Assembly (NCBI GenBank): GCA_973895155.1
Contig: OZ316895.1
Location: 19,234,803-19,298,802, forward strand
Direction of reading: 5' to 3'
Length of the DNA: 64,000 bases
Source: Marsupella aquatica
Lineage: Eukaryota > Plantae > Marchantiophyta
A program made the position numbers and the translations under genes. The notes under the pieces are model-generated. The model ran no database searches. It was not told where the DNA came from and was given only the letters and a program-made list of their open reading frames with translations. Position 1 is the first letter of the stretch. Each line of letters begins with the position of its first letter. Of the stretch, positions 7,831 through 64,000 are shown piece by piece.

Positions 7831-7847
7831 AGGGCACAGCGCCGTTT

Positions 7848-7860
7848 GAGGAGAGGGCTA
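7848..7860 (+). promoter_or_regulatory. Polypurine tract directly after integrase
   Basis: GAGGAGAGGG-CTA followed by TGTAAG, same layout as AAGTGGGGAG-CTA-TGTGAT at the confirmed LTR boundary 57617. Confidence 0.75.
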
Positions 7861-16880: not shown

Positions 16881-16895
16881 TTGCCCTCGCCTCGC

Positions 16896-26520: not shown

Positions 26521-26699
26521 ATCAATAAAGACCTCATCATGTGTATTCGCTTCAAAATATTTTATCAAGTGTGAATGTTATTCTTTCACTTTTGTACTTA
26601 ACAACATCTTTTACTTCATAACGTCTTTGAGTAATGACATATTTTGCTTATCGACTATATTGTACTTACAACATCGTTATCCTTAACCAAATTTTTTTC

Positions 26700-27050
26700 T
26701 CAACAACGTCTTGGGGGACACAACGTCTTTTTTCCCAACGACCTCTTGGCCGCCACACCATCTTCTCTCTCCACGACCTCTTGGCCGTCACAACATCTTT
26801 TCTAAGTATCCACGACCTCTTGGCCGCCACAACATCTTCTCTCTCCACGACCTCTTGGCCGTCACAACATCTTTTCTATCCACGACCTCTTGGCCGCCAC
26901 AACATCTTTTCTCTCCACGACCTCTTGGCCGCTACAACATCTTTTCTCTCCACGACTTCTTGGGCGCCACAAAATCTTAACTCTCAACGACCTCTTGGCC
27001 GCCACAACATCTTTTTTTCTCAACGACATCTTGGCCGACACGACTTCTTT
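26700..27050 (+). repeat. About 33-bp subterminal minisatellite of the Helitron
   Basis: CCACGACCTCTTGGCCGCCACAACATCTTTTCT-type unit, about 10 copies. Confidence 0.95.
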
Positions 27051-27051
27051 T

Positions 27052-40677: not shown

Positions 40678-42466
40678 ATGTCAACATCCACGAATTTGAT
40701 GGAGAAACTCTTATTTCAATCCCTAAGCATTGATAGCTTGAATTACTTGTCCTGGTTGCTAGATGTTGAAGCTCATCTAACCTCAAAGAACCTACAGGAT
40801 ACAGTCATAACCGACAATGGACTAACCCTCCAACATTTGCGCAGGCATTAATACTAATTAGACATCATCTGAGTGACTCCTTGAAGAGGCAGTACATGAA
40901 CGAATATAACCCGAGGGTCCTTTGGGAAGAACTCCAAGCACGCTTTGATCACACTTGCACCATATATCTGCCAGCAGCCAGACATGACTGGATCAATCTC
41001 AGAGTCCAAGATCATAAGACAATTGCAGACAACAATTGCGAATTATTCTGAATAGTATCACAATTGTGGCCACATAGTAAACAACGCAGAACAAATAGAG
41101 AAAACTCTATCCACCCTACATTCCACCAATCTCATTCTCTCCACCCAATACCGGAACATGCAATTTACTAGATACTCCGAGCTGATCGCCCATATGCTCC
41201 TGGCCGAGAAGCACCAATTATTGCTATTACATAACTCACAAAAGAGACCCCCCGGAACCCTTCCTCCAGTCACAAATCCAGAAACACACTATGCCACAAC
41301 ACAAAGAGGAGATGGGTCCTCTTACCGTGGCCGAGGAAGCTTCAGGGGGAGAAACTCATATAGAGGTCGTGGTAGCTCTTTCAGAGGACGCAGAGGCAGA
41401 AGTAACTCCTTCAGAGGCAGATCCAGAGGAAGATATCAAACAAATGGTGGTAACTCGAGAAACAATTGGCAATGAGACAACTACCAACCTCGAGCAAGGA
41501 CAAATCAACTGCAAAATGCTCCAAGAGATAAATACGAAAACCCCTCTACATATTTCCGTTGTGGCACTAAAGGGCACATCCAAAAATTCTGTCGTGCCCC
41601 TGTACACTTAGGTGCAATTATATAAGAATTTAAGCATTGCACAAAATGAACTAGAGACATATGGGACTTTCCTTGAATCTACATAAATAATACCTTCCAT
41701 AAATATGGTCATGCAAAATACCACACCTCACCTCAGCACAAAAGAAAACTTTTCCCACTACATAGTAGATATATAGTGGCACATTGCATTCTATTTTGAA
41801 ACACAAAGAATACTTCAAGCATATTACACCATCACAAAGGAAACTCACGACTATTATGGGCCAACACCAACTGGAAGAGGGATTTGGACCAGCATTAGTC
41901 ACTTTACCCCGTAAGAACAACGATTCAGGTGAAGTCTGCAATATACGCCCCAAAGGCAACAAGAAACCTACTGAGCTTCGGGGACATCCGAGCTAACAAT
42001 TTACACATCAAGACCGGTACCCAACATGGACAGGAAGTCTTGTATATCACTTCTGGGGAACCACCAAATGCAGAGATTAGAGAGACTTTGAGTGCATCAC
42101 CACCTGGTTGCTACACTACCAAAATTCATAGCTTCCTCACTGATGCACCCCAAGGCTCAATCACTGACATTTGGCATAGGAGATTGGGCCACCTTGGAAT
42201 GACAATGTTCCAGAAACTCATCAGAGAAACCCAAGGAATACCAGCATCGGTCCACCCTACGTCTATGCACGTCCCTTGCTTAGCTTGCTCACATGGCAAG
42301 TTAATAATTTGGCTCTCACCACCAACAACTGAATGCCACATCCCCAACTTCTTGGAACGCATACACGCCAACGTGTGCGGACCAATTGACACCCCAAGTG
42401 GCCCATTCCAATTTTTCATGGCTGTCATAGACGCATCCACAAAATGGTCTCAAATATCTCTGTTAT
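40678..42466 (+). pseudogene. Bianca-like gag, protease and integrase N-terminus (decayed)
   Basis: MSTSTNLMEKLLFQSLSIDSLNYLSW; RG-rich gag segment; RNLLSFGDIR; WHRRLGH...CLAC; RIHANVCGPI. Confidence 0.9.
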
Positions 42467-45400: not shown

Positions 45401-46433
45401 GGTTGGCTAGGATGAGGCTGAGACTGAGACTGAAGTTGAGCCTGAGCCTGAGTCTGCATTGGTACGGGTACGGGTATGGGGTCCACTGGGCTGGCGCCGG
45501 TGGTTGCAGGTCTAGTTCCCATGAAGCTCTACAGGTGCTGGTAGAAGTTCTCCGAAGCAAGTGCGGATGACCTTGTCGAACGGGTAGTGCTGGACTCGCT
45601 GTTGATGATAGCCCAAACCTGAGCAGGGATGTGGTTGAAGTGATGTCGTTGCAAGTCGATCGTACCCGGGATATTGAAGACCTCGTCCAGAAGCCGAAGC
45701 AATGCTTCCCAGAAACTGATATATTTGTCTCCGTTGAAGAAGTACCCAGATACCTCTGCTAGTCGGTAAAGCTCGCTCTGAGACGGGTAGTCAAAGTTAA
45801 GGATGTAGTGGTGTCGTCCTGCTAGGCGGATGGCTCTCTCGTACTCGCATTCGATTTCGTATCGGCGCGGGTTGGCGTGTTTCAATGAGTCGGCCAAGTG
45901 TCTTCCGGTAGATAGGAACTGCGTCCAGAATCGAATGGCCAAACTGGAGAGGATCGTGTGCGACATTCAGAGGAGATAGTAGTGGCGACTTAGAGCAAAC
46001 GAGAGAGCTGGGGTCGAAGCTGGCGCGTGGACTGATGGACTGGTGCACTCCAAAGGGTCGGCTCCCTTTTTATACCTTGAGGGCTTGCCGATCCCCCGAT
46101 ATCTCCTCGTTGCCTATAGGCTGAACCGTTCACGCTTGTAGTGTACCGGCCACTCCGCCGGTCTGAGTCACCGTGTGTCAGTGGACGCCTCCCGAAGTTT
46201 GTTATACGGACCCGAGGGAGGGGCCCCTCCATGCTCGTAACCCGGGCGTGCAAATGGCGATGCGCCGCCAGCCCGAACATGAATTCCCCTTATTGACTAA
46301 TGATTTCCTACTCATAATGGCTACCTAAATACTGTCGTTATGCTAATCATAGCGGCCTAAGATACTCCTAACGCTCGTGCTAGGCACGGTTTAGACCGAA
46401 TTACTCATTACTCGCCGTACTGGCGGCGTCACA
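42467..46433 (-). mobile_element. Solo LTR, 3967 bp, protein-coding
   Basis: Minus-strand termini TGTGACG...ACGTGACA; TSD GTTAT at 42462-42466 and 46434-46438; splits copia integrase cleanly; no gag, pol, PBS or PPT inside. Confidence 0.92.
43325..45966 (-). pseudogene. LTR-embedded accessory ORF (about 880 codons reconstructed) with one stop and one frameshift
   Basis: ORFs 45966-45529 and 45522-44239 share a frame separated by TAG, then shift into 44395-43325 (coiled coil); several blocks align with the 1124-aa LTR protein. Confidence 0.85.
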
Positions 46434-46734
46434 GTTATCCACCCAAAACTTGGTCTTTTCCAGACTGCTAGCCCACATTCTAAAATTGAGAGCACAATTT
46501 CCTGAAAATTAGATCAAGACTCTCAGAGTTGACAGTGCAAGAGAATTTACCTCCAAAACGTTTTCAAGAAGATTTCTGCCAAGCTGTGGCATAGATGTCC
46601 AGTACCCGGTCCCCCATGTCCACTTCCAAAATGGGATTGTTGAATCCCTGATTAAACGCTTACTATGGCCTCTACTAATGCAGACAAACCTCCCAACAGC
46701 AGCCTGGGGTCATGCCATTCTTCACTCCGCTGCA
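46434..46734 (+). pseudogene. Copia integrase core fragment between the two insertions
   Basis: LRAQFPEN*IKTLRVDSAREFTSK...PHVHFQNGIVESLIKRL...WGHAILH. Confidence 0.9.
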
Positions 46735-49700
46735 TGTGATGCCTAGACAGGAATCACTCGGCCGGTTAAGTGGGTAAAGCAGGAAGGCACCCTAGGAACA
46801 CCTTAGTATAGGGACAAAACAAGGAAAATATAAACAATTAGGGGCAACCATGGAACCCGGGCCGAGGCCGGAGGTAAGGCTGAGGGTGAAAACCCGATTA
46901 GGGTTAGGGCGCGTTAAGCGTCGGCGGCTAGGAAGGATCAACGGGAAGAAGGACCGGCAGAGGAGAGGGGTAAGGAGCGCTTGCAGGAGATGGTGGCTCA
47001 TTTGCGAGCACGAACTAGGCAGACGACTACGGGAGGCCAACTACTGTTAGCTGCTTAGGCAAGCACTCGGGGAGAGAGTAGATACCGACGATCGACCTAA
47101 GGAGGGTATGAGCAACGTCAATCAAGTGGCACATTTCTGGGTATGCCTATTCGAACGGGCAACTGAGTACATCAAGACTTACGAGGACGAGGAATCAGAA
47201 AGGGCAGCTCGAGAATGGCAGGAGCTCGCTCGATTGTGGGAGCTGCAGAAGACGGCTTTCTTAGGAGGCGAACTCATCAAGGACGAGTTCCTGTGGACGC
47301 CTACTTCCAATCAACTCGACGATCTTCTCTTTTGCAAAGACAGCGTCGTCGGCATCCGAGAGGCCATCAAGAACTGCAACGACATACACTGGGAATTAAA
47401 GGGTAGCACGGAAAGGTGGACCCAGGCAACGGTGCTAGGAGAAACCTCCACGGCAGCAGAGATGAAGAGGAAGGGAGCCGTCAATGATGAAGCCACCCCG
47501 GCAAAAAGAACGAGGTCGGCGGCACCAAAGAAGCCAGCCGAGCAACAGAACAGGAGGCAGGGAGAAGCCGAAGAGGAGGAGGTCGATCCCATCAAGGCCA
47601 TTCCAACCAGGGATGACACCTGGAAGGGCTGGGCGGCAACCCTACCGGTGGAGGTGCAACTACATTTTGCACGGGAGGAGGATGCATGCTTTACGGCCAT
47701 GCAGACCAAGAAGTACCAAGGCTTCATGGCCGGATCCGGCTTGGAGGCCTTTGTAAGATTACCATGGCTGAAGCCGGAGGTACCGGAGTCAGACCTATTA
47801 GAATTCTTGGGGTCATGGGAACCCGAGACCAATTGCACGAGGATATATGGGAAGGATTTCTATCTTACTCCCAAGGTAATTGCCGAAGTGTTTGGCCTGC
47901 CGATAGGCAATAAGACCAAAGTTGATACCAGGAAGACCTTGCCTGACAAGGAGTTCCGGTCGTTCCCCGGGCCATCAACGAAGAATGGCTTCTTCCGGAA
48001 CACCTGCACCAACCCGCACATAGGAGAGATGATCGACTTCTTGCGGGTGACCATGCATTGTAACTTGCCGAGGGCAGAGATCGGCAAGGCACAGGTCTAT
48101 CTGGCAGAAAGGCCAGACCCAAGCCGGGACTACAACGGGTACCTCCTCAACCAATTGAAGAAGATCTTAAAGGAAGAGCAGCAGGTAATCGGCATGGGGA
48201 GCGTGTCGCGGCTGGGCTATCACATGCCGCTGTTGTGCCGGTATGCCAGAGGTCAGACTTTTGCCCCGGTACTTCCCCTGCAGGTAAGGGCACCCGAGGA
48301 AGCTCCAACGCCGAGGCCGTTGGCTGAGAAGCCTCAACCACCTGTTAGTCCTACGATCGAGCAGGTGTTTAGGCCCAAGAAGGAAGACTTGCCGATGCAG
48401 CAACCAGGCATGCACAGTCTGCTGAAACTACTGGAGAAAGAAAAGAAATCGGCATCGGCAACAACAACGGCAACGGCAACAATGCAGGACACTACTATAG
48501 AGGTAGGCCTACACCGGCTCACAAGAGAAAACCCCTTTGCTGGAGACAAGGAGAGAATCAGGCCGGAATCCAAGCCAGGTGTTCGAATGTACGTGGGAAC
48601 CTCAAGCTCCAAATCTGAGGCAGAATTGCCTGAAGCTCCTACCAACGAAGAGGAGAGGGAGAAGTCGGACGTCCAAGAGGTAGAGGAGGCAGTGGAGGAC
48701 TGCAGCCATGATAATTCCGGCTATGGGTCGGACCATCACGTTCCAGGAGTAAGGACCTGTGGCCGGTTTGTCCCCACACTTCCAAGGGTAGTGCGAGGGG
48801 ACCCCAACCAGCAGAGTAGCCCTGAGTCTCCCCCACCAGATGTTGCTCCCCCGAGCTTCAACGGCATAAAACAGACGGTGCAGGAATTTCAGGAGCGAAT
48901 CAAGCAGGAGGAGGAGGCCGCCCTAGCTAAGGAAAAGGATTTACCAGGAGGAGATTGGCCGGAGGACATCAGGCGGCTAGCCAAAAAAGGAAGCAAACCT
49001 CTAGCCACGATTGAAGAGATCCGCAGGACGGCTTGGGAGCAGAGGCCGCGATGGGCAATGCCGATCACTTCTACTTACTCCACCTACGCTAAGAATAGAG
49101 CCATGGAGTATGGTGAGATGTGTGGGGAACTTGCGCTCGGCATCTTTGGAGAGGAGTTGGAGGTAGGACCCTTTTTCCATAGGGAGCAGTTGGAGAAGCA
49201 CCAATTAGAAGAAGCGGTGGCTTTAGAGAGAAGCAAGAAGGACGAGGTCATTCGGCGGCTTAGGAGGATGGAAGCCGAGATTGAAGATCTAAGGGCGGCC
49301 AAGAAAGCCCAAGATGAACTGCGGATTAAACGACATGAGCTGAACATCATGCAGGGGCAGTTGGACACCGCGCAGGCTGATAATCAGAATATCAAGGATA
49401 AACTGACTCAGACGCAGGAAGAGTTGGCCGACACGATCAAAGAGAGGGAGAAGTGGAAGCAAGAGCTGAAGAATACAGAGGAGGCCCACATAACAGCCAA
49501 CAGCCGGGCCATGGCGGAGACCCAAAGAAAGGAATGGGCGTTGAAAGGGGAGCTCGAGAAAATCCGCGGAGCCCTTGAGCAGAAGGAGGCCGAGTTAGGG
49601 AAATCCTATCAAGGGATTATGGCGCTGCAGCAGGAGCTTGCATCCCTGACGGCCAACTTCAAGGCCGACCTAAGGGAGAAGGACGAGATGCTCGAACAGA

Positions 49701-51403
49701 CTTACGCCAAGATGAACCAGATGGAGTCTGTCATCATTGCAGAGCTCGACAAGGAGCTAAAAGCAACCCAGGAGGAGAGGACTACCTTGAAACAAGAACG
49801 AGAGGAAGCCCAGAAGGAACTAGAGGAGGCACGCAAGGACCTGGATGAGACCCAGGAGGAGTTGGAGGAAATCACGAGGAAGATGGAGAACCTCCAGCGG
49901 TGGGCCGACAACCAAACGGAGCGGCTGAAGAAACAAGCCGCAGTATTTAGGTGCTTGTCTTCATCAGGCCCAACTCCAATTGGGGCAACCAAGTTACCAG
50001 GAGTGGTACTGGCCGAAGAAAAAGCCGCGCCAACTGCACCAGTGCCGGAGGTAAGTGGGAAGGGGAAGGGACCAGCTGCCGAACCAGAAAAGAAGAAAAA
50101 GCGGAAACCTTCAGGGTCAAGGAGTAATCCGACTCCACAAGCCGTGGTGACCAAAGAGGTAGAACCAGCACCATCCTCTGACATGAATACGGCAATAGAT
50201 CCCGCTATGATCACAGGTAGGGATGGTGCGGCCCAAGCCGAACTACTCAGTAAGGAGGCCAGTATTCCAGATCCGCCTCTTGAGCAGGCCGGGGAGACCG
50301 TAGCCGAGGCTGAGGCCGTAACCGATTCTCGAGCCGATGCTGACGCCGATGGTGGACCCAGTCAGGCCGATGGAGAGTTGACTCAGTCAAGGGCAGGTAA
50401 TCTGTCAGGGAATGAGCCTACGGCAGTGGCTGAGGAGGAAGCGTTGGGGGCGTCCATTAAGGATCCACCACCGGTGTCGTGACGGTGCAAGGGCGCCGTT
50501 CCTTTTAGGGAGGGCGGACGTGGAGGGAGGAGGCGTGAGTGGGCAGGGCGGGCGCGGATCTCCACGTTTAGGATTAGGATCAGAACCAGGAGCGGCCCTG
50601 ACACTTAGCTTAGTGGGATTGCGGTCCCACTGGTAGAAGCAACACTTGTGCTCCTGCCTTGCTGTACATAGGTAGATTCGGGCAAGTAGATTACTGTTAA
50701 GTAGATTAGGCTTACGATGCAAAGAATGGCGGATCCACTACTAGGATAAGTACCTGGGCAGCGGGGAGCTCAGGGCCTCTTCTTTAGCAAGTTTTTAGTT
50801 TGCACCAGCCGGGCTGGGATCAAGTAGTACGAGAAGCTCTCGGTTAGTCATACAGTGACCCTTGTGTATATTCATGTTTCCTCATGCCTAAGAGCTGAAT
50901 AGAGTTGGCCTCACGGCTTAGTTCGCAGAACTTGTGTATGAGATGTACTGTTTGTATGGCAAGTGCATGGTATGACTCAGTCAGAATGAGTCATTTTGCT
51001 ATTTGTGTGTCGCATTAACTTGTGTGAAGAGTGCCCACATCAACAGAAGGAAGGAAAGTAAGCAGGGGAGTGAGAGTTGGATGTGTCGAGCTAAGAGAGG
51101 TCTTAGCGGCTTAACCAAGCCTATTGGGGATCATTCCGGCGGCGGAATCCAAACATACCTAACAAGACGGAGGGGAAGACAGGGGAAGACAGGGGAAGGC
51201 CTATATTAGGCCGGCTACGTATCTCATGACCCGATGAAGGATCTGTCCAGTATATGTGTGTAAAATGTTAATAGTAGTAGTAGAAGGTTAGCAGCGTCCC
51301 ATGCCGCTAAGCTGCGGAAACGGCCTCGCCAAGCACGAAACCTGCGGGAATCGGCTTGAGCTGGGGGGTTTCTTGGGTTTAGGGAGCCATGGGACACACC
51401 ACA
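46735..51403 (+). repeat. 5' LTR, 4669 bp
   Basis: TGTGATG...CACCACA; about 99% identical to 57617-62285 (roughly 40 substitutions counted by eye, no indels seen). Confidence 0.97.
47108..50482 (+). CDS. 1124-aa accessory protein of unknown function encoded inside the LTR
   Basis: Uninterrupted ORF; N-terminal helical block, LPW...EF...FGLP...C..P...F domain, disordered linker, long coiled coil, KKKKRK basic patch; homologues in two other LTRs in this window. Confidence 0.9.
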   Translation: MSNVNQVAHFWVCLFERATEYIKTYEDEESERAAREWQELARLWELQKTAFLGGELIKDEFLWTPTSNQLDDLLFCKDSVVGIREAIKNCNDIHWELKGSTERWTQATVLGETSTAAEMKRKGAVNDEATPAKRTRSAAPKKPAEQQNRRQGEAEEEEVDPIKAIPTRDDTWKGWAATLPVEVQLHFAREEDACFTAMQTKKYQGFMAGSGLEAFVRLPWLKPEVPESDLLEFLGSWEPETNCTRIYGKDFYLTPKVIAEVFGLPIGNKTKVDTRKTLPDKEFRSFPGPSTKNGFFRNTCTNPHIGEMIDFLRVTMHCNLPRAEIGKAQVYLAERPDPSRDYNGYLLNQLKKILKEEQQVIGMGSVSRLGYHMPLLCRYARGQTFAPVLPLQVRAPEEAPTPRPLAEKPQPPVSPTIEQVFRPKKEDLPMQQPGMHSLLKLLEKEKKSASATTTATATMQDTTIEVGLHRLTRENPFAGDKERIRPESKPGVRMYVGTSSSKSEAELPEAPTNEEEREKSDVQEVEEAVEDCSHDNSGYGSDHHVPGVRTCGRFVPTLPRVVRGDPNQQSSPESPPPDVAPPSFNGIKQTVQEFQERIKQEEEAALAKEKDLPGGDWPEDIRRLAKKGSKPLATIEEIRRTAWEQRPRWAMPITSTYSTYAKNRAMEYGEMCGELALGIFGEELEVGPFFHREQLEKHQLEEAVALERSKKDEVIRRLRRMEAEIEDLRAAKKAQDELRIKRHELNIMQGQLDTAQADNQNIKDKLTQTQEELADTIKEREKWKQELKNTEEAHITANSRAMAETQRKEWALKGELEKIRGALEQKEAELGKSYQGIMALQQELASLTANFKADLREKDEMLEQTYAKMNQMESVIIAELDKELKATQEERTTLKQEREEAQKELEEARKDLDETQEELEEITRKMENLQRWADNQTERLKKQAAVFRCLSSSGPTPIGATKLPGVVLAEEKAAPTAPVPEVSGKGKGPAAEPEKKKKRKPSGSRSNPTPQAVVTKEVEPAPSSDMNTAIDPAMITGRDGAAQAELLSKEASIPDPPLEQAGETVAEAEAVTDSRADADADGGPSQADGELTQSRAGNLSGNEPTAVAEEEALGASIKDPPPVS

Positions 51404-51407
51404 TTTT

Positions 51408-51425
51408 TGGCGCTAGATGGAGGGG
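51408..51425 (+). promoter_or_regulatory. Primer binding site
   Basis: TGGCGCTAGATGGAGGGG, 4 nt after the LTR end; TGG complements the tRNA CCA end; tRNA identity not assigned. Confidence 0.8.
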
Positions 51426-51472
51426 GCATTTCTTAAGCCGTGAGATATGAAGTTAGAACGGAAGCGTAGGTA

Positions 51473-54466
51473 ATGACTGACCTTACGCCGAGGGAAGAAA
51501 GAGTGATTCAACGGGAGAGAGCTCGACTGCAGCAGCTCGCCGGGTGGCATGATACACAGCGACTGAGAGGGGCAGAAAGAGCTGGTAGCTCCGAAACTGG
51601 AAGTGGCGTCGAAGAAGACATACCAGAAGAAGAGTCGGTAAGGAGAAGTGAGTCTCCAACTGACATGGGGGAACCAGAGGCACGGCCAGACGAGAGGCCA
51701 AGGACCAGATTGAGCCAGCGGTCGCGCATACATTACAAGGCATTTCATGGGAGAGGAGATGAGGATCCGGACGAATGGTTGGATGATTTCGAGAGAACCG
51801 CTGCAGCAAATGGAGAATCGGCCATCAAGATGCAGATTCTTCCCGGCCTGTTCAAGGGTGAGGCTAGGCCTTGGTACAGAGCATTAGATGTGGAAGATCA
51901 AGCCATCTGGGATATCTTCAAAACACTCTTTGTTAAGGAGTTTCGACCCATTGGAACTTCAGAACTAGCAGTGCTGAAGTTGGGACAACTTCGGTTCAAG
52001 GAGAACAAATCCTTCAGGAAGTTCTTGCAACGCTTTCAGAAACTGGTAAGATGTACAAAGACCAATGCATCTGAAGGTATGCAACTTCAATGGTTGGTGA
52101 ATGCTTTGCCACAGAAGATGAGTTTTGCAATTAGGAAGGAGAACCCGGAGACTTTAGCCGAAGCAATTAAGGATATTCAATTATACATTAATGCAGATAT
52201 CACAAGCCGGAAGAAACAGCTTAAGTCTGAGAGTTCCTCATCAGAGGAGGGATCACCCCATAAGAGAAAAGATAAGAAGAAGAAACATCCCAATAAGTCT
52301 AGAAGTGATAAGTCAAGCTCGGATAGTGGGAGTAGCAAGAGTGAGTCATCTTCTAGTTCTGAAGAAGAAAAAACTAGGAAAAGGAAGGGCAGAAGGAGAG
52401 GGAAGACGAAAGTCAAGATGGAAGCTAAGCCACCAGATAACATCGTAGCCCTTACCAAGCAACTTAAGGCTATCATTGCAGAGGTAAAACCAAAGAAGAA
52501 GGTAGTACAGGAGGATAGCTCTGTATGGTGTGCCTTATGTTATAAAACCGGACACCATAAAGATGCGTGTCCTAAGCTTAATACTAATCATGTTCGGCAT
52601 GTGGCCGAGATCAGACCATGTCAGGGAGAAGTAGAGTACTTTTTAGGAGATGCCGCTGATAGTGTTTTCGGCATCAGTGGGACTGGAGCACGAGACCTAT
52701 CCAACAGACCTGCATCTCTGTGGTCAGGGTTAAGGAACAATCCAGGAGAGATGTATCCTCGGATTATTCAGAACCCGTCAGTACCTCCTAGGCCGAATGT
52801 ACAAAGATTTGCGGCGTGCTATAATTGTGGTCAACCTGGCCATTTTGCTAGAGAATGCCCGAATGCACGCAAACAGGGTGATGGACAACCAGCTCAGCTA
52901 TGTATGGGATGCCGACAGGAAGGTCATATGCTAGGGCAATGTCCTACTTGGTTGGCAGGCCTGGCCGCAAATCATAAGCTTTTGCCGATCAAGATCTTAC
53001 CGCCAGGTACTACCCCCGGAGGAGTTCAAATCAACCACATCGAACTAGGATGGCAAGAGGATGCCGAGGCAGAGTTCGTACCATCTGCTGATGAGGCCGA
53101 AGCCCTATCAACCTTCTCAGAGGAGGATTTAGATCATGATTGCTACCGGGCCTCTACTCGATCTACCAGAAGGAAGGAAAGGTGGGATGGGCTGGCCAAA
53201 AATAAAGGGAAGGTTACGGAGGAAAGGATCGACTCTTCGTCAACATCAACAGAAGGAGAAGGGAGGGCTCCGGCAATACAGGTAAGCCATGAGCCCACCA
53301 GTGAAACCAATCCTTCACAAGATAGCGACTTCAATCGAGATCATCCTAAGTTGTTCTACCCCTCTGTTACGGCTAGTGTTAAGGAACAACTAAGAGAATT
53401 AGAAACCCTGGAGAATACCGAAGCCATTGCCAAGGATGTAAAACGAGCAAAAGCATTGTTTGCTTTGGAAGACCCAACAGCTGTGGAGACTAGCGTGGCA
53501 AAACTGGCCGAATCCAAGATGGAAACACCACCAGAAGAGAAGCCGATTGTTCCCTATGACCTGGCTAAAGATGTACTAGAATCTAGAGTCTCGGCAACAG
53601 TAGGTCAACTATTGAAAAATAGCCCGTACTTCCGGAAGCAATTAAGGAAGGCTATTCTCGGCAAGCCAAGATTACCCAAGGTAGCAACCAGATCCGACGT
53701 ACTAATGATAGAAGAAGATCAAGGAGCCCCAGCATTACCATTAATGATTCAAGGAGAATTATTACTACGGGTACCCATCAATGGAGGATCAGGGGTATGT
53801 ATTATGATTGATTCAACAGCAAAAGGGTGGGGTCTAACACCGGAGATGACTGGAAGAGTGTTGAACATGGCCAATGGATATCAGGTCATTCCCACGGGAG
53901 TGTTAACCGGCATCAAGACAGAGATAGGAGGTATCTTCTTTAGCATTAACTATGTAGTAATGAAGCCGGTAAATCCTACGTCATTCCGGCTATTGATTGG
54001 TAGGCCATGGCTGTACCTAGCCGAGGTAATAGAAGATTGGGGTAAAAAGCAGTTCACTTTCGGGACCCCCTCTATCACGGTATCCTGGGACACTAAGGAT
54101 GACCGTAGGAAAAGCATAAGGGAAGTAGATGGGTACGACAGTGGACTGGAGTCAGCCGATGAAGTACGTTGGTTAGAATGCCTCACTAACCTAACCGAAG
54201 AAGGAGTCTTTGGACCAGAGGTAGCCCCCAGCGGATTATGGCAAGAACCAATGGAAGGTGACTTGGAAGAAGAAGACGAAGAGGTCGAGGACTGCTTTAC
54301 AATAGAATCCACCTTTTTAGCTGCAATTCCGGAGGAAGTAAAGGATGTAGACCAATTGGATGAAACGGCTAAGTGGGGAGCAGTAGCAGGGACAGTGGAT
54401 TTTCTGCAGGCGTTGTGGCAGAGCCGACGGGGTCCACAACGCCATCGATCATCGGCAAGGAATTAA
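51473..54466 (+). CDS. gag: Gag-protease polyprotein, 997 aa
   Basis: FHGRGDEDPDEWLDDFE capsid start; three CX2CX4HX4C knuckles; protease with INGGSG (catalytic D replaced by N) and LLIGRPWL. Confidence 0.93.
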   Translation: MTDLTPREERVIQRERARLQQLAGWHDTQRLRGAERAGSSETGSGVEEDIPEEESVRRSESPTDMGEPEARPDERPRTRLSQRSRIHYKAFHGRGDEDPDEWLDDFERTAAANGESAIKMQILPGLFKGEARPWYRALDVEDQAIWDIFKTLFVKEFRPIGTSELAVLKLGQLRFKENKSFRKFLQRFQKLVRCTKTNASEGMQLQWLVNALPQKMSFAIRKENPETLAEAIKDIQLYINADITSRKKQLKSESSSSEEGSPHKRKDKKKKHPNKSRSDKSSSDSGSSKSESSSSSEEEKTRKRKGRRRGKTKVKMEAKPPDNIVALTKQLKAIIAEVKPKKKVVQEDSSVWCALCYKTGHHKDACPKLNTNHVRHVAEIRPCQGEVEYFLGDAADSVFGISGTGARDLSNRPASLWSGLRNNPGEMYPRIIQNPSVPPRPNVQRFAACYNCGQPGHFARECPNARKQGDGQPAQLCMGCRQEGHMLGQCPTWLAGLAANHKLLPIKILPPGTTPGGVQINHIELGWQEDAEAEFVPSADEAEALSTFSEEDLDHDCYRASTRSTRRKERWDGLAKNKGKVTEERIDSSSTSTEGEGRAPAIQVSHEPTSETNPSQDSDFNRDHPKLFYPSVTASVKEQLRELETLENTEAIAKDVKRAKALFALEDPTAVETSVAKLAESKMETPPEEKPIVPYDLAKDVLESRVSATVGQLLKNSPYFRKQLRKAILGKPRLPKVATRSDVLMIEEDQGAPALPLMIQGELLLRVPINGGSGVCIMIDSTAKGWGLTPEMTGRVLNMANGYQVIPTGVLTGIKTEIGGIFFSINYVVMKPVNPTSFRLLIGRPWLYLAEVIEDWGKKQFTFGTPSITVSWDTKDDRRKSIREVDGYDSGLESADEVRWLECLTNLTEEGVFGPEVAPSGLWQEPMEGDLEEEDEEVEDCFTIESTFLAAIPEEVKDVDQLDETAKWGAVAGTVDFLQALWQSRRGPQRHRSSARN
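54397..54456 (+). promoter_or_regulatory. Candidate -1 programmed ribosomal frameshift signal
   Basis: G GAT TTT in the gag frame, 5-nt spacer, perfect 10-bp stem (54409-54418 with 54434-54443), loop GCCGA pairing with TCGGC at 54452-54456; pol lies in the -1 frame. Confidence 0.7.
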
Positions 54467-57400
54467 ATACCAAGGGATCGGCATACAAGCCGATTACGAG
54501 GGCAGAACAAATTGAGGCCCTATTAGAAGCCAAGAGAGCACAGCGGCCTAACTCTCAGGAGCAAGAGGTGGATGAGATGGACAGACACGATCCAGAGCCA
54601 AGGCAGGAAGGGGAGCCGACCACTAATTCAAAACCGCATAGACCGGTAAGGGGACAATCTATGGACACCAAGGAAGGGACCGACTCGGCTAGTCCAGCCG
54701 AGATCCCAGTTTATGGAGGTATGAGATTAGAGAGACTGGAAGCCGAACTGGACCCGAATTTGAAGAAGCAGATTAATATGATCCAAGCACGGCAATATCG
54801 GAAGCTTGACTTAGGAGAGGGAAGAGAACTGAACTTAGGGAGAAACCTAGCACCTGAGCTCGAGAAAGAGATCAGTGACTTATTGATTGAATTTCAGGAT
54901 GTGTTTGCATGGAGTCACCAAGATCTAAAGGGAGTAGATCCAACACTAGGGGAACATCAAATTGATCTCATGTTAGGAGCCAAATCATTTCGACAACCAA
55001 TTCGAAGGATGAACCCGAAGTATTCCCTGCTGGTCAAAACAGAAATCGACAAACTAGTGGAAGCTGGATTCATCACTCCAGTCCTGCATTCAGACTGGGT
55101 GTCTCCAATTGTGATAGTTCCCAAGAAAGCTGGACCCGATGGTAAACCCAAGATCCGGGTTTGTCAGGATTACAGGAAGCTGAATGAAACAACATTAAAA
55201 GACCATTTTCCTTTACCGTTTACTGATATGGTACTAGACATGGTAGCCAGTCATGAACTATATTCATTCATGGATGGATACTCTGGTTATAACCAAATCA
55301 GGATTCGGCAGGAAGACCAAATCAAGACGGCCTTCATCACGGAATGGGGGATCTATGTCTTCAATCGTATGCCGTTTGGACTCTGCAACGCACCAGCTAT
55401 GTTCCAACGATTAATGGTGAACATTTTTCATGATTACTTGAGAAAGTTCATGGAAATCTTCATTGATGACTTTGCAGTATTCGCGAAGGCATCGAAACAT
55501 GCTAAATACCTCAGGAAAACCTTCATGAGATGTAGAGAGGTGGGTCTCAAGTTACACCCAGATAAATGTTTTTTTGCAGTAACCGAGGGGGTGCTCCTAG
55601 GTCACAAGGTATCAAGGAAGGGCATTGAGATTGACAAGGGTAAGCTAGCAGTATGGCTAGATATCATGCAACCTAAGAACATAAAGGATGTAAGATCCTT
55701 CTTGGGATGCATTGGTTACTATCGCCGGTTCATCAAGGATTTTGCCAAGCTAGCTTTACCATTAACCAATATGCTCAAGGCAGGAGCAGACTTCGAACCC
55801 ACACCCGAACGAGTCACAGCGGTGGTAGAATTGAAGCAGATGTTAGTAGAGGCCCCAGTCATGATAGCACCGGACTGGAACAAAGATTTTCATGTTTTTG
55901 TAGATGTCTCGGGCTTCTGTATTGGCTCAGTACTAAGTCAGTTGGATGAGAAAGGAAGGGACCATCCCATATACTTCGCAAGCCGTCAGCTTGCCGATGC
56001 CGAACGGAACTACTCTACCACGGAAAGAGAAGCATTAGGAGTCATTTATTCTTGTAAAAAGTTTAGGCATTATTTACTAGGGTACAAGGTAATCTTTCAT
56101 ACTGATCACGAAAGTTTGAAGTACCTAGTCAATAAGCCGGACCTTACAGGCAGAGTAGCAAGATGGATTTTGCTATTACAGGAGTTTGACTATGAGCTGA
56201 GGATCAAGCCGGGAAAGTTACATGCCAATGCCGACTTCTTTTCAAGGATCACAGGTAAACCTGCCACGGATTGCATCGATGATCGATTCCCCGATGAGGA
56301 GCTATTCGTTGTGGAAATAGCTGGTACATGGTACCCTGAGATTTTACAATTTCTCAGCACTTCCAGATTACAGCCAGGATTAAGCCGATAGCAAGCCGCA
56401 GTCTTTGTGCGGAAGGTCAGACAGTATCAGTGCATTAAAGGCATACTGCACAAGCATGGAATCAACGGCACGATTCAAAGATGTTTGGAAAAGAGAGAGG
56501 TAAAACGAGTCCTACGGGCCATGCATGGAGAGGAGGCCGGAGGACATTTTGCCCCAGTAACCACGTCTAAAAAGATATTAAATGCCGGTTACTGGTGGCC
56601 CACCTTGCACAAAGATGTCTATCAGTTTATCAAACAATGCGATCCTTGTCAACGAGCGGGAGGACCAAGGGCATCCACTACACCCTATTCTACCTCTGGC
56701 ACCATTCGAGAAGTGGGGTATTGATTACATTGGACCTCTGAAACCACTGACCCACCCTCGACGGAACAAGTACATAATCCTGGCTACGGATTATGCAACT
56801 AAATGGGTAGAGGCCAGACCAACAACGAAGGATGATGCAATTACTACGGCTAGATTCATGTATGAGCAGATCTTCACCAGGTATGGAGCACCCCTAGAAT
56901 TAGTTAGTGATAGAGGAACCCATTTTTTGAATGATATAATTAGTCGTTTAAATGAGCAGTATTTAGTTAAACATAGGCCTACTACTCCCTACCATCCAAA
57001 GGCAAACGGGTTGACAGAACGAGCAAACGGAATTATAGGAAAGATATTGAACAAGACAGTAGCTCAGAACAAACTCGATTGGGATGATAAATTGTTTGCT
57101 GCTGTTTTTGCTTACAATCTTGCCTATAAATCCACTACCGGTCATACACCCTTCTTCTTAACCTTTGGACAAGAAGCCCTGGTACCCATGCAACTTGAGA
57201 TACCGACATTTCAAGTTACAATTGAGGAAAGAGCCTCAGCGGAGGAGAGCCTAAAGGAGCGAGAATATAGGTTAGAAGCTTTAGAGGAAGCGAGAATGAT
57301 TTCAGCCGAGAGAGTAGAATATAGACAGAATATCATGAAGCAGCAGTATGATAAAAGGTTAAAAGTAGTTAGTATTCATACCGGTGATCTTGTGCTACTT

Positions 57401-57603
57401 TATGACAGTAGGTATAGTAGGTTTCCAGGAAAGCTTTACACTCGCTGGTTAGGACCCTTTAGAGTAACCATGATGTTCCCCAATGGCTCCGTACAATTGG
57501 CCAACATTACGGGAGAGGTATATCCAGTTCGCATCCATTATGACCGCCTCAAGAAATACTATATGGACGAAGATGAAGTTGTTCGCGAGGACGCTTCACA
57601 ATT

Positions 57604-57616
57604 AAGTGGGGAGCTA
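57604..57616 (+). promoter_or_regulatory. Polypurine tract overlapping the last integrase codons
   Basis: AAGTGGGGAG-CTA directly before the 3' LTR TG. Confidence 0.85.
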
Positions 57617-60600
57617 TGTGATGCCTAGACAGGAATCACTCGGCCGGTTAAGTGGGTAAAGCAGGAAGGCACCCTAGGAACACCTTAGTATAGGGACAAA
57701 ACAAGGAAAATATAAACAATTAGGGGCAACCATGGAACCCGGGCCGAGGCCGGAGGTAAGGCTGAGGGTGAAAACCCGATTAGGGTTAGGGCGCGTTAAG
57801 CGTCGGCGGCTAGGAAGGATCAACGGGAAGAAGGACCGGCAGAGGAGAGGGGTAAGGAGCGCTTGCAGGAGATGGTGGCTCATTTGCGAGCACGAACTAG
57901 GCAGACGACTACGGGAGGCCAACTACTGTCAGCTGCTTAGGCAAGCACTCGGGGAGAGAGTAGATACCGACGATCGACCTAAGGAGGGTATGAGCAACGT
58001 CAATCAAGCGACACATTTCTGGGGATGCCTGTTCGAACGGGCAACTGAGTACATCAAGACTTACGAGGACGAGGAATCAGAAAGGGCAGCTCGAGAACGG
58101 CAGGAGCTCGCTCGATTGTGGGAGCTGCAGAAGACGGCTTTCTTAGGAGGCGAACTCATCAAGGACGAGTTCCTGTGGACACCTACTTCCAATCAACTCG
58201 ACGATCTTCTGTTTTGCAAAGACAGCGTCGTCGGCATCCGAGAGGCCATCAAGAACTGCAACGACATACACTGGGAATTAAAGGGTAGCACGGAAAGGTG
58301 GACCCAGGCAACGGTGCTAGGAGAAACCTCCACGGCAGCAGAGATGAAGAGGAAGGGAGCCATCAACGATGAAGCCACCCCGGCAAAAAGAACGAGGTCG
58401 GCGGCACCAAAGAAGCCAGCCGAGCAGCAGAACAGGAGGCAGGGAGAAGCCGAAGAGGAGGAGGTCGATCCCATCAAGGCCATTCCAACCAGGGATGACA
58501 CCTGGAAGGGCTGGGCGGCAACCCTACCGGTGGAGGTGCAACTACATTTTGCACGGGAGGAGGATGCATGCTTTACGGCCATGCAGACCAAGAAGTACCA
58601 AGGCTTCATGGCCGGATCCGGCTTGGAGGCCTTTGTAAGATTACCATGGCTGAAGCCGGAGGTACCGGAGTCAGACCTATTAGAATTCGTGGGGTCATGG
58701 GAACCCGAGACCAATTGCACGAGGATATATGGGAAGGATTTCTATCTTACTCCCAAGGTAATTGCCGAAGTGTTTGGCCTGCCGATAGGCAATAAGACCA
58801 AAGTTGATACCAGGAAGACCTTGCCTGACAAAGAGTTCCGGTCGTTCCCCGGGCCATCAACGAAGAATGGCTTCTTCCGGAACACCTGCACCAACCCGCA
58901 CATAGGAGAGATGATCGACTTCTTGCGGGTGACCATGCATTGTAACTTGCTGAGGGCAGAGATCGGCAGGGCATAGGTCTATCTGGCAGAAAGGCCAGAC
59001 CCAAGCCGGGACTACAACGGGTACCTCCTCAACCAATTGAAGAAGATCTTAAAGGAGGAGCAGCAGGTAATCGGCATGGGGAGCGTGTCACGGCTGGGCT
59101 ATCACATGCCGCTGTTGTGCCGGTATGCCAGAGGTCAGACTTTTGCCCCGGTACTTCCCCTGCAGGTAAGGGCACCCGAGGAAGCTCCAACGCCGAGGCC
59201 GTTGGCTGAGAAGCCTCAACCACCTGTTAGTCCTACGATCGAGCAGGTGTTTAGGCCCAGGAAGGAAGACTTGCCGATGCAGCAACCAGGCATGCACAGT
59301 CTGCTGAAACTACTGGAGAAAGAAAAGAAATCGGCATCGGCAACAACAACGGCAACGGCAACAATGCAGGACACTACTACAGAGGTAGGCCTACACCGGC
59401 TCACAAGAGAAAACCCCTTTGCTGGAGACAAGGAGAGAATCAGGCCGGAATCCAAGCCAGGTGTTCGAATGTACGTGGGAACCTCAAGCTCCGAATCTGA
59501 GGCAGAATTGCCTGAAGCTCCTACCAACGAAGAGGAGAGGGAGAAGCCGGACGTCCAAGAGGTAGAGGAGGCAGTGGAGGACTGCAGCCATGATAATTCC
59601 GGCTATGGGTCGGACCATCACGTTCCAGGAGTAAGGACCTGTGGCCGGTTTGTCCCCACACTTCCAAGGGTAGTGCGAGGGGACCCCAACCAGCAGAGTA
59701 GCCCTGAGTCTCCCCCACCAGATGTTGCTCCCCCGAGCTTCGACGGCATAAAACAGACGGTGCAGGAATTTCAGGAGCGAATCAAGCAGGAGGAGGAGGC
59801 CGCCCTGGCTAAGGAAAATGATTTACCAGGAGGAGATTGGCCGGAGGACATCAGGCGGCTAGCCAAAAAAGGAAGCAAACCTCTAGCCACGATTGAAGAG
59901 ATCCGCAGGACGGCTTGGGAGCAGAGGCCGCGATGGGCAATGCCGATCACTTCTACTTACTCCACCTACGCTAAGAATAGAGCCATGGAGTATGGTGAGA
60001 TGTGTGGGGAACTTGCGCTCGGCATCTTTGGAGAGGAGTTGGAGGTAGGACCCTTTTTCCATAGGGAGCAGTTGGAGAAGCACCAATTAGAAGAAGCGGT
60101 GGCTTTAGAGAGAAGCAAGAAGGACGAGGTCATTCGGCGGCTTAGGAGGATGGAAGCCGAGATTGAAGATCTAGGGGCGGCCAAGAAAGCCCAAGATGAA
60201 CTGCGGATTAAACGACATGAGCTGAACATCATGCAGGGGCAGTTGGACACCGCGCAGGCTGATAATCAGAATATCAAGGATAAACTGACTCAGACACAGG
60301 AAGAGTTGGCCGACACGATCAAAGAGAGGGAGAAGTGGAAGCAAGAGCTGAAGAATACAGAGGAGGCCCACATAACAGCCAACAGCCGGGCCATGGCGGA
60401 GACCCAAAGAAAGGAATGGGCGTTGAAAGGGGAGCTCGAGAAAATCCGCGGAGCCCTTGAGCAGAAGGAGGCCGAGTTAGGGAAATCCTATCAAGGGATT
60501 ATGGCGCTGCAGCAGGAGCTTGCGTCCCTGACGGCCAGCTTCAAGGCCGACCTAAGGGAGAAGGACGAGATGCTCGAACAGACTTACGCCAAGATGAACC

Positions 60601-62285
60601 AGATGGAGTCTGTCATCATTGCAGAGCTCGACAAGGAGCTAAAAGCAACCCAGGAGGAGAGGACTACCTTGAAACAAGAACGGGAGGAAGCCCAGAAGGA
60701 ACTAGAGGAGGCACGCAAGGACCTGGATGAGACCCAGGAGGAGTTGGAGGAAATCACGAGGAAGATGGAGAACCTCCAGCGGCGGGCCGACAACCAAACG
60801 GAGCGGCTGAAGAAACAAGCCGCAGTATTTAGGTGCTTGTCTTCATCAGGCCCAACTCCAATTGGGGCAACCAAGTTACCAGGAGTGGTACTGGCCGAAG
60901 AAAAAGCCGCGCCAACTGCACCAGTGCCGGAGGTAAGTGGGAAGGGGAAGGGACCAGCTGCCGAACCAGAAAAGAAGAAAAAGCGGAAACCTTCAGGGTC
61001 AAGGAGTAATCCGACTCCACAAGCCGTGGTGACCAAAGAGGTAGAACCAGCACCATCCTCTGACATGAATACGGCAATAGATCCCGCTATGATCACAGGT
61101 AGGGATGGTGCGGCCCAAGCCGAACTACTCAGTAAGGAGGCCAGTATTCCAGATCCGCCTCTTGAGCAGGCCGGGGAGACCGTAGCCGAGGCTGAGGCCA
61201 TAACCGATTCTCGAGCCGATGCCGACGCCGATGGTGGACCCAGTCAGGCCGATGGAGAGTTGACTCAGTCAAGGGCAGGTAATCTGTCAGGGAATGAGCC
61301 TACGGCAGTGGCTGAGGAGGAAGCGTTGGGGGCGTCCATTAAGGATCCACCACCGGTGTCGTGACGGTGCAAGGGCGCCGTTCCTTTTAGGGAGGGCGGA
61401 CGTGGAGGGAGGAGGCGTGAGTGGGCAGGGCGGGCGCGGATCTCCACGTTTAGGATTAGGATCAGAACCAGGAGCGGCCCTGACACTTAGCTTAGTGGGA
61501 TTGCGGTCCCACTGGTAGGAGCAACACTTGTGCTCCTGCCTTGCTGTACATAGGTAGATTCGGGCAAGTAGATTACTGTTAAGTAGATTAGGCTTATGAT
61601 GCAAAGAATGGCGGATCCACTACCAGGATAAGTACCTGGGCAGCGGGGAGCTCAGGGCCTCTTCTTTAGCAAGTTTTTAGTTTGCACCAGCCGGGCTGGG
61701 ATCAAGTAGTACGAGAAGCTCTCGGTTAGTCATACAGTGACCCTTGTGTATATTCATGTTTCCTCATGCCTAAGAGCTGAATAGAGTTGGCCTCACGGCT
61801 TAGTTCGCAGAACTTGTGTATGAGATGTACTGTTTGTATGGCAAGTGCATGGTATGACTCAGTCAGAATGAGTCATTTTGCTATTTGTGTGTCGCATTAA
61901 CTTGTGTGAAGAGTGCCCACATCAACAGAAGGAAGGAAAGTAAGCAGGGGAGTGAGAATTGGATGTGTCGAGCTAAGAGAGGTCTTAGCGGCTTAACCAA
62001 GCCTATTGGGGATCATTCCGGCGGCGGAATCCAAACATACCTAACAAGACGGAGGGGAAGACAGGGGAAGACAGGGGAAGGCCTATATTAGGCCGGCTAC
62101 GTATCTCATGACCCGATGAAGGATCTGTCCAGTATATGTGTGTAAAATGTTAATAGTAGTAGTAGAAGGTTAGCAGCGTCCCATGCCGCTAAGCCGCGGA
62201 AACGGCCTCGCCAAGCACGAAACCTGCGGGAATCGGCTTGAGCTGGGGGGTTTCTTGGGTTTAGGGAGCCATGGGATGCACCACA
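57617..62285 (+). repeat. 3' LTR, 4669 bp
   Basis: Direct repeat of 46735-51403, followed by TSD CTGCA. Confidence 0.97.
57990..61364 (+). pseudogene. 3'-LTR copy of the accessory ORF with one nonsense codon
   Basis: TAG at 58974-58976 where the 5' copy has CAG (48092-48094); the frame is open upstream to ATG 57732. Confidence 0.9.
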
Positions 62286-64000
62286 CTGCACTACTAAGCT
62301 ACAGACCATCATCTTTTAACTCAACCACCCCACATCAACTTGCACTAAGAAACACACCAAACGTCTCTCACTTAAGAACATTCGGCTGTAAGGTCATGGT
62401 ACCCATCCTAGGACCTAAGCGCACCAAGATGGGACCCCAAAGACATGCGGGAATATACATTGGTTTTGATTCCGCTTCAATTATCAAATATATGGAACCT
62501 ACCACATCTGATGTCTTTAAAGCACGTTTTGTGGACTGTCACTTCTATGAAAAGAATTTTCCCAAACTACATACAAAGCAACAAATTGACAAAGAGAAAA
62601 ACTCTACACTGTCTTACTTGGCAAATTGAAGCTGGTTTTTGGAATGACCCACGGGATGGCCATGAAGAAAAGGAAGTACAGAGATTTATACATCTTGCGA
62701 GGATGGTAGAACAACTACCGGTCTCCTTCATGGATGCGGCCCAGGTGACGAGGTCTCATATCCCAGCAGCAAATGCACCATCTAGAATCCAAATGGAGAC
62801 ACCACCAGCATCAGTGACAGCCCCAAAAGCAAAGAGAGGCCGCCCACCAGGTTTAGGAGATAGACAACCAAGGCAGCGGAGAGCTGCCCCCCCCAAGTGC
62901 ACCCAGTACATCGATCAGGAACCAAACTCCAAGACAATCAAATGCACCAGAAGACAACAAAGAGATATCAATCAATTATGGAAGAACTGGACATGTATGG
63001 GACAAAGAGGATACCACGATAGATGAAAAATTTGCATTTCACATAGCACAACAGATCAAAGATGAACTGCCCGACCCAAGAACAATTAAGGAAGCATAAA
63101 CTCAACCAGACTTGCCTGAATGGAAGAAGGCCATCCACTTAGAACTGGATTCATTAATAGCTCACCAAGTGTTTGGACCAATAACAATAGCAGAACCTAA
63201 AACACATCTTACAGGCTATAAATGGACTTTCGTAAAGAAACAAAATGCAAAAGTTGAGGTAACACGGCACAAGGCCAGGCTAGTGGCCAGAGGGTTCACT
63301 CAAGTCCCAGACAGGGACTATGACCTTTATTATTCGCCTGTAATGGACGTAATTACTTACAAGTACCTTATTACATTCTCACTACGCCACAACTTATCCA
63401 TGCACCATATGGATATTGTGACAGCTTATTTATATGGGCACTTAGACAAAGATATATATATGCAGGCCCCTCCAGAATTGGTGCAACGAGTTGAGTACCA
63501 CAGCAAAGGGAAACAAATACATCAAACTGGGAACCAGAAACAAATGGAAATATTTGATCATACAAATGCAGCCATGCTCCAGAAGACTGCAGCGGCAATA
63601 GCACTAAGAGCTCCCATACAACAAATTCAGAATCAGAGGGATCCCACCTCAAGAACTCGCTTTGCAGTACAGGTTTTTATATCAATGTATGGCCTCAAAC
63701 AAAGCGGATTGACATGGTACAAAAGATTTAAATCCAAGATGCTGGCAATGGGATTCACAAACGCTGACATAGCCCCATGTCTATTTCTGAAGCGAGAGGC
63801 AAAAGAATTTAGTATTGTGGCTATTTATGTGGACGATCTGAACCTGTTCAGATCCAGAAAAATTATGATGGAAACCATCAAGTTACTTAAACAGGCTTTT
63901 GAGATGCGCGACCTAGGGCAAACTTCTTTCTGCCTAGGCCTACAATTTGAGCATCTGCAAAATGGCATTTTACTGCATCAGTCCACATATATCAAAAAGA
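62286..64000 (+). pseudogene. Bianca-like copia integrase C-terminus and reverse transcriptase
   Basis: HLRTFGCKVMVP, KARLVARGFTQ, MDIVTAYLYG, MYGLKQSG, IYVDDLNL. Confidence 0.95.

Follow-up and report, generated by a model that had tools for sequence, protein, structure and literature searches.

A 64,000-nucleotide stretch of contig OZ316895.1 from the liverwort Marsupella aquatica (hereafter, the window) contains a 15.55-kb Ty3/gypsy retrotransposon whose long terminal repeats (LTRs) carry an accessory gene of 1124 codons. The gene is almost certainly a true component of the LTR, and a comparison with related elements supports the view that its location is a trait of the lineage rather than an accident of one copy. 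Judged by sequence, it is a remote relative of the sense accessory gene of Athila elements and not a new kind of gene. Taken as a whole, the reading towards which we lean by a small measure is that of an Athila-like element whose accessory gene moved into the U3 part of the LTR and may encode an anti-silencing factor similar to VANC.

LTR limits were set by comparing the window with itself, which revealed one long direct repeat (46735-51403 and 57617-62285). The two copies, 4669 bp each, are 99.1% alike and differ by 40 substitutions (36 transitions and 4 transversions) and no gaps, corresponding to a Kimura two-parameter distance (K2P) of 0.0086; both start with TGTGAT and end with ACCACA. 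These are the limits given in a preliminary description of the same DNA, made from the sequence without database searches, on the basis of TG..CA ends, the primer-binding site (PBS), the polypurine tract (PPT) and the target-site duplication (TSD) CTGCA. The same description held that one open reading frame (ORF) makes up about 72% of the LTR, and the ORF indeed spans 3375 of the 4669 bp. It also stated that the PPT overlaps the end of the integrase and leaves no internal space, and this is what we found: the purine tract at 57604-57613 overlaps the final integrase codons and the integrase stop codon at 57626-57628 already belongs to the 3′ LTR, with no space left internally for an additional ORF. 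The internal part, 6213 bp, is made up of gag, a protease region, reverse transcriptase (RT), RNase H (RH) and integrase. The gag-pol frames are damaged by a stop at 54464 accompanied by a frame change, a stop at 56389, a second frame change near 56670 and a degenerate protease motif. Together with the low K2P value, the broken frames indicate an insertion that is recent yet no longer intact. If C is assumed to be the older base, the LTR differences fall at 16 of 448 CG sites, 12 of 507 CHG sites and 8 of 1563 CHH sites, and this excess in CG and CHG is the pattern expected under host methylation.

The accessory ORF is open in the 5′ LTR, where 921 bp remain after its stop. The preliminary description reported a duplicate in the 3′ LTR; a copy is present there but is not intact, being interrupted by a premature stop (58974-58976, codon 329) and altered by 18 other amino-acid changes. 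The frame of the 3′ LTR is open for another 86 codons upstream of the ATG position. Because homologues begin at the same position, the ATG at 47108 was taken as the start.

Relatives of the element were collected by scanning metagenome contigs with the RT, which gave 20 loci; the same scan of viral contigs gave none. Integrase is present in 10 of the 20, and in 8 of these 10 the accessory domain follows in sense, 300-800 bp behind it. In the other two, the contig ends too soon (L003) or there is no domain match (L018). Among the eight, L001 and L010 show only partial matches, at contig ends. A signature preceding the LTR, which ends in PPT plus TG and whose pattern was written after the sites had been seen, occurs once in each of eight loci and once in the window. 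It stands ahead of the ORF, directly behind the integrase, in L001, L002, L010, L012, L016 and the window (LTR type), and behind the ORF in L004, L005 and L009 (internal type); no signature is seen in L003 and L015 as far as their contigs reach. Among the metagenome elements, the gene is thus located inside the LTR in five and in the ordinary slot between pol and LTR in three. For L001 and L002, the LTR end preceding the PBS recurs as an inverted repeat in the bases after the signature. In L004 and L005, the signature is followed by an LTR of 991 bp and 1086 bp, respectively, and then by a PBS. In every family, including those in which it runs into the integrase codons, a conserved motif of 15-17 bases precedes the start of the LTR by 15-17 bases; it may act in cis as a signal in packaging or in the priming of the plus strand.

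LTR-type sequences form one clade both in the integrase tree (support 94/93) and in a quick RT-RH tree (SH-aLRT 89), with the internal-type L009 outside. A single clade of internal types is rejected by the approximately unbiased test (p-AU 0.026). Some observations count against the reading favoured here. The metagenome contigs are collapsed assemblies, and none of the LTR-type contigs contains a whole LTR. Moreover, the accessory-domain tree separates the window protein from the other LTR-type proteins: together with the product of a probable solo LTR located nearby (see below), it groups with Calypogeia proteins, away from L002, L012 and L016, in a tree that has long branches. When imposed on integrase, this grouping is rejected, but only at p-AU 0.049. 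Given the conflict between the two trees, the gene may have moved once or twice, or have undergone a swap. Family members with short LTRs and an internal ORF, named in the preliminary description as evidence that would count against an LTR gene, are in part represented by the sister lineages L004, L005 and L009; the LTR location of the gene in the window stands nonetheless, and the internal ORFs would explain how it originated.

The upstream limit of U3 is set by the PPT, from which plus-strand DNA is primed. From the comparison of sequences, we consider it probable that the gene entered U3 through a shift of the priming site. The ancestral order would have been pol, accessory gene, PPT and a 1-kb LTR. 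The plus-strand start would then have moved to a PPT directly behind the integrase, and all that lay downstream, including the gene, would have become U3, to be copied to both ends at each replication cycle. The last 0.9 kb of the present LTR would correspond to the old LTR with its main promoter, R and U5; the 921 bp that follow the ORF are similar in length to the whole LTR of internal-type relatives. A PPT-like motif 10 bp past the ORF stop resembles the one behind the integrase in L003 and L004, a likeness that was fitted after the fact, and is possibly the vestige of an older plus-strand priming site. A literature search and the consulted text of PMC1142308 gave no confirmation that the env-like gene of Athila is flanked by two PPTs. 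Transcription of the LTR gene would start at a promoter of its own within the initial 370 bp of the LTR and stop at the poly(A) site of the LTR, and each LTR, whether 5′, 3′ or solo, would thus be an expression unit. A TATA-like box is located upstream of the ORF in both LTR families of the window and is the putative promoter of the gene. The assignment to U3 had already been proposed in the preliminary description; it is probable in view of the position of the ORF after the PPT and of the comparative anatomy.

The TATA-like box could also be the main promoter. The ORF would then lie in R or U5 and be the first ORF of the genomic RNA, like the 5′ extra ORFs of Tekay and Ogre, and gag-pol would be expressed from a spliced RNA. 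Upstream of the ORF are found TATAAA in the 4669-bp LTR (position 95) and TATAAAAAGG in the solo LTR; donor-like sites occur at 46874 and 46970, and a pattern search revealed no clear TATA box in the final 0.9 kb. This arrangement is nevertheless improbable, as it requires either a 4.5-kb minus-strand strong-stop DNA or a terminal redundancy of 4 kb. In addition, the homologous gene of internal-type relatives is located 3′ of pol, a position that leads naturally into U3, and the post-ORF segment matches a complete LTR of those relatives in size. That the ORF is a functionless passenger, nested or captured in the LTR of one master copy, is suggested by the decay of local gag-pol copies and of the 3′ ORF and by post-insertion changes that look neutral, but is extremely unlikely in view of 1124 open codons, two domains whose order is conserved among homologues that are 24-44% identical, and a location that is constant among several families and hosts.

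The two LTR families of the window, which are otherwise unrelated, have in common a motif of 29 bp (51134-51161 and 42623-42651) that includes the palindrome-like TTCCGGCGGCGGAA. It is located 270 bp from the 3′ end of the 4669-bp LTR and 185 bp from that of the solo LTR, and is a candidate promoter, R or poly(A) signal.

Genes encoded in U3, and copied with it into both LTRs, are known from retroviruses, such as sag of mouse mammary tumour virus and nef of human immunodeficiency virus. These are far shorter than the window ORF, encode unrelated proteins and belong to mammalian retroviruses.

The element has the features of Ty3/gypsy retrotransposons (TG..CA LTRs, TSD, PBS, PPT and the order gag-protease-RT-RH-integrase). 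Its nearest RT-RH proteins are found in the liverworts Calypogeia fissa (66%) and Riccia sorocarpa (55%), followed by those of ferns and seed plants (43-49%). The PBS differs from that of L001, L002, L004 and L005. We take it to be of the tRNA-Arg type and theirs to be of the tRNA-Asp type, which is typical of Athila (mostly tRNA-Asp, -Asn or -Ala). No tRNA genes were found in the 64-kb window.

Known lineages were compared using the criteria for Phygy, Selgy, Tat and Athila set out in Neumann 2019 (PMC6317226). A chromovirus was discarded, as there is no chromodomain match and the integrase stops at the LTR. OTA/Tat elements (TatI-III, Ogre, Retand) were discarded as well, since they require an additional RH (aRH), whereas a single RH is directly followed by integrase here. 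Phygy elements of Physcomitrella are likewise bryophyte non-chromoviruses and have a polyprotein that fills the internal part; however, they feature a 4-bp NCGN TSD, in contrast to the 5-bp CTGCA, a tRNA-Trp PBS and a length of 7.7-10 kb, and no extra ORF is recorded for them. Selgy elements have 4-bp TSDs and range from 4.4 to 6.7 kb. With Athila, the element shares a 5-bp TSD, the lack of an aRH and of a chromodomain, and a polyprotein devoid of extra domains. An Athila-like bryophyte lineage of Ty3/gypsy is therefore the likely assignment.

The sense 3′ accessory (env-like) ORF of Athila, associated with PF03078 and PF20167, lies on the same strand and in the same order after pol as the window gene, the product of which is remotely related to PF20167. 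PF20167 marks the 3′ sense ORF of sunflower Athila, according to the portion of PMC11728184 consulted. The two differ in that the window gene is found after the PPT, in both LTRs, its product lacks a transmembrane helix, and the PBS departs from that of the relatives. Pol sequences of bryophyte type are separate from unlabelled, Athila-like seed-plant sequences in both the integrase and the RT-RH trees.

Two conserved domains were recognized in the accessory protein. The N-terminal one, residues 1-105, is helical and was recovered by a profile built without the query (E 1.3e-4); its model has a predicted local distance difference test (pLDDT) of 77.5. A structure search with it returned generic helical matches only (best Z 6.2), with no clear known fold, its Atlas score of 0.76 is under chance level, and a word-seeded search of proteins of 1072-3060 aa with its alignment found nothing. 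The second domain, residues 170-395, has 89 homologues at E 0.001. Ten of these were looked up; three are named Calypogeia proteins and the others are unnamed or hypothetical. PF20167 (Transposase_32) is matched by 6 of 68 aligned homologues and by L009, with scores of 17-32 bits compared with a gathering cut-off of 45, and the proteins are hence remote relatives and not formal members. No PF10536 match was found for the query or for any of the 68 at E 0.01. Atlas comparisons, which provide leads only, pointed to a PF20167 cluster (0.89) and an ATHILA cluster (0.87). A word-seeded protein search with residues 150-400 found nothing, and a metagenome scan with a three-sequence alignment of the domain gave no loci. 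Downstream of this domain come an acidic stretch that is disordered, a region resembling a coiled coil and the run KKKKRK, similar to a nuclear localization signal (NLS). Heptad windows occur at residues 883-950, with weak matches to coil families. The transmembrane helix typical of retroviral Env proteins is absent, the best 19-residue hydropathy value being 0.82.

The model of residues 170-395 (pLDDT 89) best matched the VANC21-DNA complex 9lnk_A (Z 8.3, root-mean-square deviation 4.1, 206 residues aligned, 9% sequence identity), and the next best of the 48161 chains searched reached only Z 2.0. The domain is accordingly predicted to adopt the fold of the VANC21/DUF1985 DNA-binding region. 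The only, and weak, structural neighbour of the domain in BFVD is A0A890CAY5, an unnamed protein of 805 aa (E 0.013, prob 0.90, TM 0.34). In the preliminary description, the domain was guessed to be of the plant mobile domain (PMD) or transposon-associated kind, a guess that was correct in kind, given the PF20167/ATHILA neighbourhood and the predicted VANC21-like fold. The nuclear accessory factor proposed at the same time also fits, as a prediction, the NLS-like run, the coiled-coil-like stretch and the lack of a transmembrane helix.

VANC proteins, encoded by VANDAL (MuDR) DNA transposons, resemble the window protein in the predicted fold, in the coiled coil and in evolving fast beside a conserved core enzyme. 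In the available text of PMC5735166, VANC is described as binding a short motif, of which its own transposon contains repeated copies, and as removing DNA methylation. VANC and Athila-domain proteins have both been modelled as coiled-coil pentamers, and VANC has been reported to be dicot-specific (PMC13547354, in the part seen). The motif recognized by VANC is often in tandem, and relatives of the window element similarly contain repeated words specific to each family. Differences include the retrotransposon context, the 9% identity, an extra N-terminal domain and the lack of a tandem motif array; anti-silencing is, moreover, only predicted here. Among host PMD proteins (MAIN, MAIL1, MAIL2), to which the PMD-A proteins of retrotransposons such as Ogre are related, PMD-C reportedly resembles the DUF1985 of VANC in structure, implying the same fold family for the window domain. 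Excerpts of bioRxiv 2024.09.27.615353 state that PMD-C proteins share the VANC fold and oppose Polycomb silencing. Ogre, a PMD-A carrier, differs from the window element by its aRH and its internal extra ORFs.

The accessory domain evolves fast, yet under constraint. In the same four pairs of sequences, its dN is 0.60-0.75 compared with 0.13-0.26 for integrase, a 2.4- to 4.7-fold difference, with dS at least 1.7 or saturated. Non-coding DNA of the relatives contains family-specific words that include CG; for instance, TCCGGA occurs 27 times in L001 compared with 1.2 in shuffled sequences. L001, L002, L010, L012, L016, L004, L005 and L015 are saturated with words of their own (TCCGGA, ACGCG, AGCGCT, AACCGC).

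The predicted structure makes a good case for a nuclear DNA-binding protein, and anti-silencing is the likeliest of its possible roles, one that we put forward tentatively. The protein would enter the nucleus, oligomerise through the coiled coil, bind a short motif repeated in the DNA of its own family and oppose silencing by DNA methylation or Polycomb, as VANC and MAIN/MAIL do. Several results weigh against this interpretation. The VANC21 match barely clears the caution line (Z = 8) of the structure search. The Foldseek check suggested in the preliminary description gave no PDB match at E 0.001 and so missed VANC21, and a search of PDB sequences with the domain profile returned nothing real; the query itself has no Pfam match in the domain. 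A common fold by itself shows no function. Differences between the 5′ and 3′ ORFs look neutral, with 13 of 32 being synonymous compared with an expectation of 32% (p 0.18), and 6 of 9 shared variants listed in read tables, which contain just 40 variants and thus not enough to obtain dN/dS for the family, are non-synonymous. The words over-represented in the relatives are frequent in their coding DNA too, and L009 and the solo LTR show little or no enrichment. In the window LTR the enrichment is weak (CCTAA 13 compared with 3.7, z 4.6, 95% maximum of the null 4.4), and no tandem motif array is present.

The same predicted DNA-binding fold, NLS and coil would suit a factor that targets integration or tethers the element to chromatin, guiding new copies to heterochromatin or to other elements, or importing the pre-integration complex into the nucleus. 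The element lacks a chromodomain, two families carrying the gene are inserted 300 bp apart in one copia integrase, and nuclear-import roles have been proposed for accessory ORFs (PMC7264820). We regard this role as unlikely: the one structural neighbour with a solved structure acts in anti-silencing, host PMD-C proteins act against Polycomb in the bioRxiv excerpts cited above, and two insertions in one window say little on targeting. A role in particle assembly, RNA packaging or cell-to-cell movement, traditionally given to env-like ORFs of Athila, would agree with descent from the env-like slot, the long coil and the pentamer models of Athila-domain proteins (PMC13547354, same part), but is very unlikely for a protein with an NLS-like run, no transmembrane helix and a predicted fold in common with a DNA-bound protein.

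The gene family and the type of element were already known; as far as searched, the LTR location, the intermediate layouts and the VANC-like fold are new. The search for an earlier description, proposed in the preliminary description, detected no gene within the LTR of any plant element in the searchable full-text literature, a scope that excludes subscription papers and Repbase. Reviews place the extra ORFs of plant elements internally and regard long LTRs as non-coding. A 3.4-kb LTR gene, with living layouts from before and after the move, provides a concrete route by which LTRs may grow and become coding. The role of the env-like ORF of Athila also becomes testable, as the predicted fold favours DNA binding and anti-silencing over an envelope function. 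If the present interpretation is true, each LTR, even a solo one, is likely to carry its own tool against host silencing, and if solo LTRs express the gene, LTR-LTR recombination would not disarm the family. A wider scenario, which we consider doubtful, is that a bryophyte clade moved a sequence-specific anti-silencing gene of VANC type into U3, making every LTR, solo LTRs included, a cassette that both produces the anti-silencer and contains its binding sites. When the host deleted elements by recombination, the counter-defence would then stay behind, and the origin of the VANC/PMD system would lie in retrotransposon accessory genes as old as land plants.

Table 1. Features of the LTR-gene element, the adjacent insertion and the related loci. 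Positions refer to the window unless a locus is given.
Feature	Position	Strand	Remarks
Left TSD, CTGCA	46730..46734	+	
5′ LTR	46735..51403	+	4669 bp, TG..CA
TATA-like TATAAA	46829..46834	+	LTR position 95; candidate promoter of the LTR gene
Accessory ORF	47108..50482	+	1124 aa, open
Conserved N-terminal helical domain	47108..47422	+	aa 1-105; homologue profile, structure model
Predicted VANC21-like / PF20167-related domain	47615..48292	+	aa 170-395
Coiled-coil-like region	49175..49942	+	about aa 690-945; proline-free, E/K-rich
KKKKRK, NLS-like	50090..50107	+	residues 995-1000
PPT-like motif	50493..50520	+	10 bp past ORF stop; also at 61375; pattern written after sites were seen
PBS	51408..51425	+	4-nt spacer after 5′ LTR
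gag and protease region	51473..54466	+	Retrotrans_gag, zf-CCHC
RT and RH	54577..56391	+	single RH, no aRH
Integrase region	56582..57628	+	rve; no chromodomain; stop codon inside 3′ LTR
Pre-LTR signature including PPT	57583..57616	+	lineage-conserved; purine tract 57604-57613
3′ LTR	57617..62285	+	4669 bp
3′ copy of accessory ORF	57990..61364	+	broken at codon 329
Right TSD, CTGCA	62286..62290	+	
Probable solo LTR, second family	42467..46433	-	3967 bp, TG..CA, near-perfect terminal inverted repeat, TSD GTTAT
Homologous accessory ORF in solo LTR	43325..45966	-	one in-frame stop (45529-45531) and frameshift (~44330-44395)
Pre-LTR signature in related loci	L001:7341, L002:6115, L004:6539, L005:584, L009:5327, L010:2593, L012:2492, L016:2356		

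The insertion site of the element is the integrase of an older copia element. A second insertion of 3967 bp, probably a solo LTR, is found about 300 bp to the left in the same integrase. It carries a homologue of the accessory gene, 24% identical over residues 202-416 (tblastn, E 2.6e-14), while similarity at the DNA level is almost nil, and TATAAAAAGG is placed 108 bp upstream of its ATG. Because about 2.7 pairs of TG/CA ends with a TSD are expected by chance in the range scanned, the ends were fixed by empty-site joints; the joint 42461>46434, with 5 shared letters, was found in 3 of 4 runs. Read tables showed no PBS or PPT beside other copies of the 3967-bp insertion. The copia integrase region itself (41800-42466, 46434-46734 and 62286-64000) is multi-copy, and empty sites are seen in read contigs. 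Parts of the window are contained in 11 public runs from 9 studies, none recorded as RNA, and 5 of them contain at least half of its words. In read contigs from 4 of 4 runs, the ORF and the non-coding LTR are covered alike and more deeply than the internal region, although depth does not equal copy number.

A degenerate gypsy element of the same lineage is located at 5020-10773 (+), with a more distant homologue of the accessory gene behind its integrase. This ORF of about 830 codons starts at 8268, its product is 51% identical to P0125, and TTACGC-like words are repeated ahead of it. The element is probably of the internal type; a location of the ORF inside an LTR was considered and dropped, as the pre-LTR signature is missing and the protein groups with those of internal types.

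Other repeats are found in the remainder of the window. A LINE-type RT, which we take to be RTE-like, is located at 2170-3780 and a 5′-truncated copy at 16264-16982; both are on the minus strand and they are 96.6% alike. Helitron-like Rep-helicase frames occur in several pieces at 21344-26254 (+). Tandem arrays are present at 11-241, 1462-1963, 20429-21042 and 26693-27051, with units of about 180, 163 and 72 bp, the first being found in both orientations.

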